Origin: Novosphingobium sp.
GTDB taxonomy: Bacteria > Pseudomonadota > Alphaproteobacteria > Sphingomonadales > Sphingomonadaceae
DNA: 64,000 nucleotides
Direction: 5' to 3'
Assembly (NCBI RefSeq): GCF_025351285.1
Contig: NZ_JANXWG010000139.1
Coordinates: 1,549-65,548, forward strand
The notes beneath the pieces were generated by a model, which searched no databases, had not been told where the DNA came from, and saw only the letters and a list, made by a program, of their open reading frames with translations. Each line of letters opens with the position of its first letter. Within the stretch, counting starts at the first letter, position 1. The position numbers and the translations under genes were made by a program. Shown piece by piece: positions 60,845 to 64,000 of the stretch.

Positions 60845-61738
60845 TTAAGGCAGCCCTGCCGCCGGCATCGCGACGTCGGTTACCAGCACTTTGCCGAGCG
60901 GCTTGCGCGCGGCAGTTTCGCCATCACTGCTGGGCGCGACGAGCATGAACAGGTGTTTGCCCTCGGGCCCGCCCAGCATGCAGGCAAAGCAGTTGAGCCC
61001 GTCGGTTGCGACCACATCCAGCACCTCGCCGCCCGCTGCGATCCGCACGCATTCAGGCGCGATCGAGTTGGCGATCCAGATCGCGCCCTCGGCATCGAGC
61101 GCAATGCCATCGGGCACGCGCGGCCAGGTCGGCGCCCATTCGCGGCGACCGGTGAGGTGGCCATCGGGCGCGATGTCGAACGCGGTCAGTCGGCCAGCCA
61201 GCGTTTCGCCGACGATCAGCGTCTTTCCGTTGGGCGTGATGACCATGCCGTTCGGGAAGCTGAACCGTTCGTCGCCCGCCGCCGAGGTGACGGTTCCATC
61301 CGCCTGGACGAGCGCAATCGGCGTGGGAGGATGGTCGGCGATCACGCTTTCCACGCCGCGCGCGCGGATTTCGCTGTCGAGATCGAAGCCGAAGTTGCCG
61401 ACGTAAGCGCGGCCTTGGCTATCGACGACCATGTCGTTGGCGAGATAGTGCGCGTGCTCGCCCAGATCGGCGTGGAGTTCGAAGCGGCCATCGGGCCACT
61501 TGCGCCACACCTGCCGCAGTTCCATCCGCACCACCAGCAGCGAACCATCGGGCATCCAGCCGAGTCCCGAGGTCCGACCATCGACCTCGAGTTCGACGCG
61601 CTGTTCGCCCGCCAGCGTGACCGACAGGACCTTGTGCGCGTAGAAATCCGAGAAATAGAGCCGCCCGTTGCGCCAGCGTGGCCCCTCGCCGAAATAGATG
61701 GCGGGGGCCAGCGTGCGCAAGCGGTGCGGCATCGTCAT
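60845..61738 (-). CDS. SMP-30/gluconolactonase/LRE family protein
   Basis: FGEGPRW, LYFSD, SGLGW.PDG, NDMVVD..GRAYVGNFG, FPNGMVITP.GKTLIVGET, PDGIALDAEGAIW, FACMLGG. Confidence 0.9.
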   Translation of the reverse strand: MTMPHRLRTLAPAIYFGEGPRWRNGRLYFSDFYAHKVLSVTLAGEQRVELEVDGRTSGLGWMPDGSLLVVRMELRQVWRKWPDGRFELHADLGEHAHYLANDMVVDSQGRAYVGNFGFDLDSEIRARGVESVIADHPPTPIALVQADGTVTSAAGDERFSFPNGMVITPNGKTLIVGETLAGRLTAFDIAPDGHLTGRREWAPTWPRVPDGIALDAEGAIWIANSIAPECVRIAAGGEVLDVVATDGLNCFACMLGGPEGKHLFMLVAPSSDGETAARKPLGKVLVTDVAMPAAGLP

Positions 61739-62043
61739 TACTTTTTGCCTTCAGCCTTGTGTTCGGCCTCGACGATCGAGCCTTCGGCGAACAGGTAAGT
61801 GCGCAATTGCTTGTCGAACTTGGGATCGTGGCGGCGAATCCATTCGATCATCATCGCCGCGTGTTCCTTCTCCTCGTCGCGGTTGTGCGCGAGCAGTTGC
61901 TTGAGTTCGGGATCGGTGGCCGCTTCGACCCGCTGGTTGTACCAGTCGACCGCTTCGAGTTCCTCCATCAGCGACGAAATCGCGCGGTGCAGGTCGAGGG
62001 TTTCCTTCGACAGATTGGTTTCGTGCAGGGTTTCGCTCGACAT
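61738..62043 (-). CDS. Encapsulated-ferritin (EncFtn/Flp)-like protein lacking a C-terminal cargo-loading peptide
   Basis: HRAISSLMEELEAVDWYNQR and LAHNRDEEKEHAAM..EW.RR.D..F...LRTYLF reproduce the EncFtn ferroxidase, entry and exit residues; the protein ends at 101 aa. Confidence 0.9.
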   Translation of the reverse strand: MSSETLHETNLSKETLDLHRAISSLMEELEAVDWYNQRVEAATDPELKQLLAHNRDEEKEHAAMMIEWIRRHDPKFDKQLRTYLFAEGSIVEAEHKAEGKK

Positions 62044-62096
62044 GGTTCACCGATCTCCGTTCAGGCTGTCAGCCGCTCCCGACCGACAGTCGTCGT

Positions 62097-62121
62097 AACG
62101 CCCCGCAAACGATTTAGTGCC
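62097..62121 (-). promoter_or_regulatory. Possible EcfG/sigmaT general-stress promoter of the EncFtn-like gene
   Basis: Minus strand GGCAC-N16-CGTT, one mismatch to the GGAAC-N16/17-CGTT consensus, about 55 bp upstream of the ATG; RBS GGAGA. Confidence 0.45.
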
Positions 62122-62128
62122 CGGCCAT

Positions 62129-62935
62129 TCAGCTTCCGGACGGATCGACGAAATCGCGCGGAACCGAGGCGTTGACCACGCCGCCGTCGATCGGCAGCGC
62201 GGTTCCCACCACGTAATCGCCCGCGCGGCTGGCGAGGTAGATCGCACCGCCGGCCATGTCGAATTCGTCACCGATCCGGCCCGAGGGGATGCCTTTAGAC
62301 ACCACGTCGGCATTCTTCGCCGCGGCCTTGTTCATTTCCGAAGCAAAGGCGCCGGGCGCGATCGCAGTGCAGACGATGTTGTCCTTGATCAGTTGCACTG
62401 CCATGCGCCGGGTCAGTTGAAGGATCGCCGCCTTGGATGCGTGGTAGCTGTAGGTATCCCAGGGGTTGAGCTTCATCCCGTCGATCGAGGCGATGTTGAT
62501 CACCTTGGCCAATTGTTGCGGGCTGGCGCCGGCCTTGAGCATCGGGAACAGCTTTTGCGTCAGGAAAAACGGCGTCTTGACGTTGAGGTTCATCACCTTG
62601 TCCCAGCCGATCTCGGGGAAATCCTCGAACGGTGCGCCCCAGGCCACACCGGCGTTGTTGACGAGGATGTCGAGCTTGCTCTCGCGCTGCGCCAGGTCCT
62701 GCGCCAGCATTTCCATGCCTGCCATGCTGGAGATATCGCCCGGCAACGCGTGGCAGCGATCACCCAGTTCGTGCGCGGTTTCCTCGACCACCTGCGCCTT
62801 GCGCGCGGTGATATAGACCTTGGCGCAGCCCGCCGCGAGGTAACCCTCGGCGATCATCCGCCCGATCCCGCGCGACCCGCCGGTAACCACCGCGATGCGG
62901 CCTTCGAGGCTGAACAGCTTTGAAATATCCATCAT
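62129..62935 (-). CDS. Short-chain dehydrogenase/reductase (RhlG-like)
   Basis: VTGGSRGIGRMIA, LDILVNNAG..WGAP, W.KVMNLN, VINIASIDG, YSYHASKAA, IAPG.F.S.MN, P.GRIG, G..LPIDGG. Confidence 0.92.
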   Translation of the reverse strand: MMDISKLFSLEGRIAVVTGGSRGIGRMIAEGYLAAGCAKVYITARKAQVVEETAHELGDRCHALPGDISSMAGMEMLAQDLAQRESKLDILVNNAGVAWGAPFEDFPEIGWDKVMNLNVKTPFFLTQKLFPMLKAGASPQQLAKVINIASIDGMKLNPWDTYSYHASKAAILQLTRRMAVQLIKDNIVCTAIAPGAFASEMNKAAAKNADVVSKGIPSGRIGDEFDMAGGAIYLASRAGDYVVGTALPIDGGVVNASVPRDFVDPSGS

Positions 62936-62942
62936 CAATTCC

Positions 62943-64000
62943 TCAATAACCGCTAAGTTTGGCAACGCGATCGGTGTGGTAGAACCGGTCGCCCATGAAT
63001 TCGGACAGCGCGCGATCGCGCTTCATGTACAGCCCGATGTCGTATTCGTCGGTCATGCCTACGCCGCCGTGCATCTGCACGCCTTCGCGCACCGCCAGGT
63101 TGCAGACCTCGCCCGCCTTGGCCTTTGCCACCGAGACCATCAGGTCGGCGCGCTCGGACCCGCCATCGAGCAATTGCTGCGCCTTGATCGCCGCAGCCTG
63201 CGCGATTTCGAGTTCGGCGTAGAGGTGCGCGGCGCGGTGCTGGAGGCCCTGGAATTCGCCGATCAGCTTGCCGAACTGCTTGCGCGTCTTGAGGTAATCG
63301 GTGGTGCGATCGAACGCGCCCGAGGCCACGCCGCACTGCTCCGCCGCCGCGCCGACCCGGCCCGCGCTGAGCACCTTGTTCAGCAATGCGCGCCCGCCGT
63401 CGACTTCGCCGATCACCGCATCGCCATCCAATTCGACGTTGTCGAAGGTAACGTGACTGGCCATCGCGCTGTCGACCAACCGAACGCTGTTGTGGCTGAT
63501 CCCGGCAGCATCTTTCGGCACCGCGAACAGGGTAACGCCCGCGTCGTCATCATCCGCGCCCGATGTGCGCGCCGCCACGATCAGCATGTCGGCGCTGGCG
63601 CCGTGGACCACGAAGTCCTTCTTGCCCGACAGCCGGAAGCCGTTGCCCGCTCGCTCGGCCTTGCAGGCGATGCGTTCGGGGCGGTGTTTGGCGCCTTCGT
63701 CGATGGCGATCGCCAGCACGGTCCTGCCCTCGATCACGCCGGGCAGATAGCGCCCGCGCACGTCATCGGAAGCACCCGCCAGCGCGGTAACGCCCATGAC
63801 CGAAGTGGTCAGGAACGGCGACGGCGTGAGGTTGCGCCCGATCTCGCCAAGCACGATCCCGGCTTCGACATGGCCCATGCCCAGGCCGCCGTCGGCCTCG
63901 CTCACCAGCATGCCGGTCAGGCCCATCTCGGCGAATTTGCCCCACAATTCATGGCCGAAGCCGTCCTTGCATTCGGCATCGCGCCAGCGGCGCAACTGCT
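62943..64000 (-). CDS. Acyl-CoA dehydrogenase family protein (5' end beyond window)
   Basis: LW.KFAEMGLTGML, GFRLSG.K.FV, YLKTRKQFG..IG.FQ.LQHRAA, VQMHGGVGMTDEYDIGLYMKR. Confidence 0.92.
   Translation of the reverse strand, partial: QLRRWRDAECKDGFGHELWGKFAEMGLTGMLVSEADGGLGMGHVEAGIVLGEIGRNLTPSPFLTTSVMGVTALAGASDDVRGRYLPGVIEGRTVLAIAIDEGAKHRPERIACKAERAGNGFRLSGKKDFVVHGASADMLIVAARTSGADDDDAGVTLFAVPKDAAGISHNSVRLVDSAMASHVTFDNVELDGDAVIGEVDGGRALLNKVLSAGRVGAAAEQCGVASGAFDRTTDYLKTRKQFGKLIGEFQGLQHRAAHLYAELEIAQAAAIKAQQLLDGGSERADLMVSVAKAKAGEVCNLAVREGVQMHGGVGMTDEYDIGLYMKRDRALSEFMGDRFYHTDRVAKLSGY

Follow-up and report, generated by a model that had tools for sequence, protein, structure and literature searches.

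Gene content of the locus

The window analysed here, a stretch of 64,000 nucleotides from a Novosphingobium genome, carries near one end a short gene for a protein related to the encapsulated ferritins (EncFtn). It lies on the reverse strand between an SDR gene and an SMP-30/gluconolactonase (SGL) gene, the two neighbours named in the original prediction, behind a pair of acyl-CoA dehydrogenase (ACAD) genes (Table 1). The open reading frame (ORF) ends in ...TYLFAEGSIVEAEHKAEGKK, directly followed by the stop codon. In all contigs of the clade to which the gene belongs, the genes are arranged as ACAD-ACAD-SDR-EncFtn-SGL with a convergent gmk gene next to them, and the gap between EncFtn and SGL is -1, 34, or 5 nt.

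Table 1. Features of the EncFtn-like locus, in window coordinates.
Feature	Position	Strand	Remarks
SMP-30/gluconolactonase (SGL) family gene	60845..61738	-	Downstream; 1-nt overlap of its ATG with the EncFtn stop (TAATG)
Tail-less EncFtn-like gene	61738..62043	-	ATG start, 101 codons; complete two-helix ferroxidase core and short C-terminal helix
Leader, 85 bp	62044..62128	-	With the ORF, the ~390-bp cassette missing between SDR and SMP-30 in congeners
Shine-Dalgarno GGAG	62055..62058	-	11 nt 5' of the EncFtn ATG; invariant across six related contigs
Element GGCAC-N16-CGTT, 25 nt	62097..62121	-	8 nt 3' of the SDR stop and 78 nt 5' of the EncFtn ATG; conserved in six contigs
SDR gene	62129..62932	-	Upstream; 267 aa from the second or third Met
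Acyl-CoA dehydrogenase gene	62943..64000	-	Second of the pair; runs off the window

The surrounding cluster can be followed on contig C21, to a position equivalent to 69058 of the window. There, the ACAD pair, the SDR gene, and the SMP-30-like gene face a divergent SDR gene, a third ACAD gene, and a zinc alcohol dehydrogenase gene. Adjacent ACAD pairs like this one typically encode heteromeric enzymes whose acyl-CoA substrates are bulky.

Sequence and fold of the protein

The 101-aa protein matches the Pfam EncFtn-like family (PF22277) with an E-value of 1.5e-40 and 137.3 bits (cut-off 27). It also matches the NCBIfam model TIGR04535, 'encapsulin-associated ferritin-like protein', with 132.5 bits, just over the cut-off of 125. 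The latter alignment spans model positions 6–97 of 114 and leaves the targeting-peptide end of the model unmatched; this part, therefore, has no counterpart in the protein. The best matches of a sequence search against the PDB are R. rubrum EncFtn (5da5, 3.4e-35) and Nitrosomonas europaea NE0167 (3k6c, 5.8e-33).

According to the HMMER alignment, residues E27/E28/E30/W34/Y35/E58/H61 correspond to E31/E32/E34/W38/Y39/E62/H65 of the R. rubrum protein, which make up the ferroxidase centre and the entry site. The ferroxidase-centre ligands E28, Y35, E58, and H61, as well as E27, E30, and W34, are, thus, all in place, which bears out the earlier reading of the gene as an EncFtn homologue with every hallmark residue. 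None of the seven residues varies among 196 homologues (111 tail-less and 85 tailed).

An AlphaFold2 model built from 42 homologues (mean pLDDT 92.4) contains helices at residues 13–41, 45–72, and 74–84, and an additional short helix at residues 90–97. The predicted fold, two long antiparallel helices followed by a short C-terminal one, is half of a four-helix bundle, which places the protein in the EncFtn-like family. Foldseek returned 5da5, 5l89, and 6suw as the top structures for this model (rmsd 1.1–1.3 Å, TM 0.9), and superposition gave an rmsd of 1.2 Å on 5da5 and of 1.4 Å on 3k6c. By identity, fold, and active-site residues, the ORF encodes an intact member of the EncFtn-like family.

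Absence of a shell gene and of a targeting peptide

The host genome is available as a 4.08-Mb assembly of 163 contigs, 99.66% complete. A search of this genome with the Linocin_M18 profile of family 1 encapsulins (Pfam PF04454), the check proposed along with the original prediction, gave no match at E ≤ 1. A custom profile, made from 23 alphaproteobacterial encapsulins whose genes adjoin tailed EncFtn genes and run with filters off against all six frames of the genome, reached a best E-value of only 0.56. With encapsulins as tblastn queries, the sole match in the genome was the EncFtn gene itself, via two read-through frames, and the family 2A encapsulin model NF041162 found nothing in the genome. 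The EncFtn-like model retrieved a single gene above its cut-off, the one in the window. The shell gene is absent from the genome, with a residual doubt due to assembly gaps.

The protein itself stops at 101 aa, as had been predicted, with only 15 residues after the conserved YLF. This acidic C-terminal stretch (...EGSIVEAEHKAEGKK) holds no targeting peptide of the SLGIGSL, LTIG, FTIG, or DLGIR type. Lacking both this peptide and an encapsulin gene, either adjoining or elsewhere in the 163 contigs, the protein falls outside the class of encapsulated ferritin cargo (FLP-TP) that goes with family 1 encapsulins.

Survey of EncFtn genes in Alphaproteobacteria

Among 401 sampled alphaproteobacterial genomes, 74 carry an EncFtn-like gene. 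A Linocin_M18 gene occurs in just 23 of the 73 carriers other than the host genome, each time no more than a few hundred bases away from an EncFtn gene; the other 50 have no shell, which makes 51 shell-less genomes when the host genome is counted. In the organism's own family, 4 of 201 genomes have the gene, all four copies are tail-less, and no shell was found in any of these four genomes.

The lengths of the C-terminal regions were tallied on 77 EncFtn ORFs, from the 74 alphaproteobacterial genomes and three further sphingomonad genomes. The number of residues after the conserved YLF is bimodal, 8–22 in tail-less proteins versus at least 29 (29–57) in tailed ones. All of the long forms finish with an identifiable targeting motif (GSLGIGSL, LTIG, FTIG, or DLGIR), assigned by regular expression for all proteins except L026 and L052, whose motifs were assigned by eye. 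A tailed copy lies beside the shell gene in all of the 23 shell genomes, and tail-less copies alone are found in all of the 51 shell-less ones, that of the Novosphingobium included. Three shell genomes hold an extra tail-less copy at another place. This survey of tail-less homologues and their neighbours, the second check suggested beforehand, thus, shows that tail and shell occur together in every genome, and that the neighbours of the tail-less genes vary. The shell-less state is the majority form among the EncFtn-bearing Alphaproteobacteria sampled. In a large protein collection, the Novosphingobium protein has at least 8000 homologues, and 57 of the best 120 are tail-less proteins of 99–111 aa.

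One tailed gene of the survey has an unusual frame. In L028 (genome G446), the EncFtn frame runs on for about 400 codons past GSLGIGSLKG, stop-less and GC-rich, overlapping the encapsulin gene; the probable cause is a lost stop codon or a misassembly, not a fusion.

The tally bears on the possibility that the protein is compartment cargo after all, directed to another kind of shell by a signal that goes unrecognised, perhaps the short acidic helix at its C-terminus, or docking on bacterioferritin (Bfr) or Dps. The AlphaFold2 model does contain an extra helix at that place, the genome encodes both Bfr and Dps cages, and a 2024 review allows for an undefined binding sequence in the short C-terminus of s-FLPs (PMC11202242). 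Against this stand the lack of any family 1 or family 2A encapsulin in the genome, the same absence of a shell in 51 alphaproteobacterial genomes, and the fact that tail-less proteins differ most from one another in their last 15 residues. The cavities of Bfr and Dps measure roughly 8 nm and roughly 5 nm, respectively. The ring, ~7–8 nm wide (PMC11202242), is too large for either of them, and family 1 shells are the only ones with known Flp cargo (PMC8346489). Taken together, cargo status is very improbable.

Comparison with described proteins

The original prediction went on to suggest an undescribed shell-independent EncFtn system. This novelty does not stand, since the class has been named several times, a decamer structure is available (3K6C), and the form is the majority one in Alphaproteobacteria. 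Tail-less copies were called 'Non-EncFtn' by He et al. in 2016 (PMC5012862, Discussion and Fig. 13), and 'non-targeted Flp proteins' are mentioned in a preprint by Giessen and Silver (bioRxiv 10.1101/085266). Eren et al. in 2024 introduced 's-FLP' for shorter FLPs without an apparent targeting peptide, with NE0167/3K6C, a decamer in the crystal, as the prototype (PMC11202242); NE0167 is likewise the prototype of Non-EncFtn. The Novosphingobium gene, encoding an EncFtn core without a targeting peptide or an associated shell, belongs to this s-FLP/Non-EncFtn class. The class is defined by architecture and not by clade; placement in a clade separate from that of NE0167 does not, therefore, bar membership. 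Our literature search found no study on the physiological role of the shell-less form.

The nearest characterised relative is R. rubrum EncFtn (Rru_A0973; 5DA5), with ~65–70% identity over residues 3–95, the same two-helix fold, and the same seven residues. That protein has 140 aa, with a ~40-aa linker and an SLGIGSL peptide, and is encoded directly upstream of an encapsulin gene, whereas the Novosphingobium protein has none of these additions. Its extent is close to that of the R. rubrum construct EncFtnsH (residues 1–96), of which it is a natural equivalent in length. EncFtnsH assembles into a decamer in an Fe-dependent manner and has ferroxidase activity, without iron storage and without peroxidase activity (PMC5012862).

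NE0167 (3K6C) shares the tail-less architecture, the length (~95–100 aa), and the EncFtn fold, with 65–67% identity and an rmsd of 1.4 Å. It forms a decamer in the crystal. NE0167-type proteins (L010–L022) constitute a group of their own, of 95 aa and ending in ...LFTDKPIAHE; the Novosphingobium protein differs by its longer, acidic end. A third kind of tail-less protein, with the motif HNMREE[IM]EH, is found in other sphingomonads and many Alphaproteobacteria. These proteins are likewise shell-less, with 95–104 aa, the same catalytic residues, and scattered, unrelated loci, but they are ~55% identical to the Novosphingobium protein, have NMREE instead of NRDEE, and are not its orthologues.

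Family tree, possible tail loss, and selection

Alphaproteobacterial and metagenomic sequences fall into three groups. The NE0167-like group (95 aa, LFTDKPIAHE ending) is entirely tail-less, and the HNMREE[IM]EH group, which contains the three other sphingomonad genes, is mostly so. The R. rubrum-type group (HNRDEEKEH...TYLF) is a mixture of tailed and tail-less proteins, and it is among these R. rubrum-type cores, apart from the NE0167 clade, that the tree places the Novosphingobium protein. Its own subclade comprises 13 tail-less sequences, 91–99% identical, one of them labelled as a Novosphingobium MAG. The maximum-likelihood tree requires 12–14 changes of tail state. Repeated tail loss within the R. 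rubrum-type group is suggested rather than established, because an AU test on the 80 alignment columns does not reject a single tail-less clade (p = 0.18). No substitutions specific to tail-less proteins emerged; the differences fall in the variable N-terminus and follow clades, and none is near the active site.

A position among tailed relatives raises the question of whether the decay of a former EncFtn-encapsulin operon has left the gene behind as a remnant, truncated, deprived of its 3' end and of the shell gene, and functionless. The core does group with tailed R. rubrum-type proteins, and the chain ends about where the Gly/Ser-rich linker starts in tailed relatives, the tailed proteins L037 and L043 continuing with ...EGSILGIEEKAEGKDEASGKSGGSLGIGSL. 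Sequence evolution at the locus speaks strongly against decay. Between the window and three diverged clade contigs (dS 0.38–0.81), the EncFtn gene has a dN/dS of 0.07–0.14, similar to the values of the flanking genes in the same comparison (0.08–0.10 for SGL and 0.04–0.14 for SDR), and this constraint extends over four lineages with dS up to 0.8. The frame is intact, at 99–101 aa, in all 12 of the closest cluster representatives, the catalytic residues are invariant, and the genome search turned up no encapsulin fragment. Similar proteins of 99–104 aa ending in ...AEGKx also form tail-less subclades in many other taxa. A remnant is, in our view, extremely improbable; judging from these substitution patterns, the EncFtn-like gene is functional and under purifying selection.

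Origin of the cassette and relation to the neighbours

Eight congeneric genomes contain the orthologous ACAD-SDR-SGL block (SGL 55–73% identical) without an EncFtn gene, the SDR stop lying 2–5 nt from the SGL start. Because SDR and SGL abut in these congeners, the 85-bp leader and the 306-bp ORF can be regarded as a cassette of ~390 bp, present only in one sublineage. Gain by transfer is the economical reading, although loss elsewhere is formally possible. Gain is favoured by the rarity of the gene in the family (4 of 201 genomes), as the other three copies belong to a different sequence group and lie at other loci.

Around positions 62122–62136 (reverse strand), the window and the P0010-type contigs have extra bases (...CCGGAAGCTGA[ATGGCC]GGGCAC...) relative to the P0007 and P0008 contigs. 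A string at these positions, TGA-ATGGCCGGG, resembles the ancestral junction between the SDR stop and the SGL start of the congener L107 (CACTGAACATGGCCGGGG); it may be an insertion scar, or a chance likeness.

At 76 other alphaproteobacterial EncFtn loci, an ACAD gene was found once, an SDR gene twice, and an SGL gene never within 1.5 kb. The neighbours of tail-less relatives vary by taxon (SOD, UbiD/SDR, isochorismatase/PfkB, LytR/GroEL, malate synthase, FtsK, and ArgS), and never include a shell gene. No conserved partner gene was found, as the neighbours are different in every taxon. P0019 is a 103-aa tail-less relative with 74% identity (contigs L087–L089), whose gene is divergent from an Fe/Mn superoxide dismutase gene across an intergenic region of ~186 bp; this arrangement is kept in at least three independent assemblies.

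The partnership with the SDR and SMP-30 neighbours, hinted at in the original prediction, could take the form of a protein dedicated to an ACAD-SDR-SMP-30 pathway, for example as a di-iron oxidase or as a scavenger of oxygen species for its flavoenzymes. Such a link would fit the five-gene block, which is co-directional, tightly spaced, and conserved in all clade contigs, and the overlap of the EncFtn stop with the SGL start. It is nevertheless unlikely, as the orthologous operon works without the gene in the eight congeners, close tail-less relatives have unrelated neighbours (divergent Fe/Mn SOD, UbiD, isochorismatase, and GroEL), the 76 other loci almost never show these genes, and no tail-less-specific substitution lies near the active site. 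The pair directly abutting in congeners, its rarity at other loci, and the varied neighbours of relatives together lead to the conclusion that the SDR/SMP-30 neighbourhood is a local accident of one lineage and not a system. The close spacing of EncFtn and SGL is maintained, or almost so, throughout the clade, and an acquired functional link might still lie behind it.

Regulation

The leader contains one conserved element among otherwise variable sequence, the remainder differing by substitutions and indels among the six contigs. This element, GGCAC-N16-CGTT, resembles the consensus of EcfG general-stress promoters, GGAAC-N16/17-CGTT (PMC6599016), with C for A in the critical AAC of the -35 box. 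As a promoter candidate of a degenerate EcfG type, it is possible but rather doubtful. The genome contains 40 occurrences of the bare pattern, as chance would give, so that the likeness counts for nothing on its own. Neither a sigma-70-like promoter nor a terminator was found between SDR and EncFtn on the gene's strand, which makes read-through from the operon plausible, and inspection of the 85-bp leader by eye revealed no Fur- or Irr-like box.

The exact consensus GGAAC-N16/17-CGTT lies within 150 nt upstream of 6 of the 23 tailed EncFtn genes and 3 of the 53 tail-less ones, where chance would give ~0.001 per locus. The carriers are the tailed L037, L042, L043, L047, L049, and L062 and the tail-less L061, L074, and L075, with the motif 34–98 nt upstream. 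In L037 and L043, whose C-terminal region resembles that of the Novosphingobium protein, it is located at 77–90 nt, the same distance as the element described here. These motif counts lend some plausibility to the degenerate site, and they suggest that the EncFtn family may often take part in the general stress response of Alphaproteobacteria. Our literature search found no paper tying encapsulin or EncFtn to this response.

Elsewhere in the genome, on contig C31, the AT-rich leader upstream of the Dps gene contains a repeated GATCAATA motif (GCGATCAATATGACCATATTTATCGACTTAGAAGATCAATAAATCG), which resembles the operator of a regulator responding to iron or peroxide.

Proposed role

The best explanation, and a likely one, is that the gene encodes a functional shell-independent EncFtn-like protein, which would act as a soluble, Fe-dependent decamer oxidising Fe(II) for stress protection. 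From the earlier proposal of a free-standing ferroxidase, what holds is that an intact protein of the EncFtn type must act outside an encapsulin, in view of the missing shell, the missing tail, and purifying selection; what falls is the word 'undescribed'. Oligomeric state and activity are extrapolated from the ~65%-identical R. rubrum EncFtnsH and from the 3K6C decamer; the formation of a decamer, ferroxidase activity in vivo, a role in stress, and the regulation of the gene are inferences.

By analogy with EncFtnsH, two subunits would form a di-iron ferroxidase centre at their interface, and binding of Fe(II) would cause dimers to come together as an open, ten-subunit ring. The ring may then oxidise Fe(II) with O2 and release Fe(III) instead of storing it, with less Fenton chemistry as the presumed outcome. 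Storage would be left to the bacterioferritin and Dps of the genome; genes for a Bfr, a Dps, and a rubrerythrin-like protein are present in it, so storage capacity exists elsewhere in the genome. Most likely, the protein lowers free Fe(II) during stress, the Fe(III) being released or passed on. Its gene probably entered an existing ACAD operon, as the ~390-bp cassette of leader and ORF, between the SDR and SMP-30 genes, and may be read as part of the host operon's transcript, or else from its own weak promoter of the stress type.

In isolation, the R. rubrum ring oxidises iron slowly, and the Fe(III) that it produces precipitates. The benefit of a free ring to the cell is, therefore, not obvious. 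A more novel reading is a new two-part iron system, in which the free ring would be the catalytic half and its conserved acidic C-terminal helix would dock on an Fe(III)-receiving Bfr, Dps, or unrecognised non-HK97 container. We consider this distinctly improbable, but if it were true, the family would act mainly in this way, as shell-less forms outnumber encapsulated ones by ~2:1 in Alphaproteobacteria.

By itself, the gene is one more ordinary representative of a class that already has a name, and the wider point is that this class is large. What remains useful beyond the single gene is the tail-shell tally, the enrichment of EcfG motifs, and the pair of lineages with and without the cassette. 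The latter amounts to a natural experiment, in which closely related genomes have the same operon with or without the 390 bp. Tail-less genes keep all catalytic residues under purifying selection, which implies that an open ferroxidase ring that does not store iron would have a selectable function of its own.
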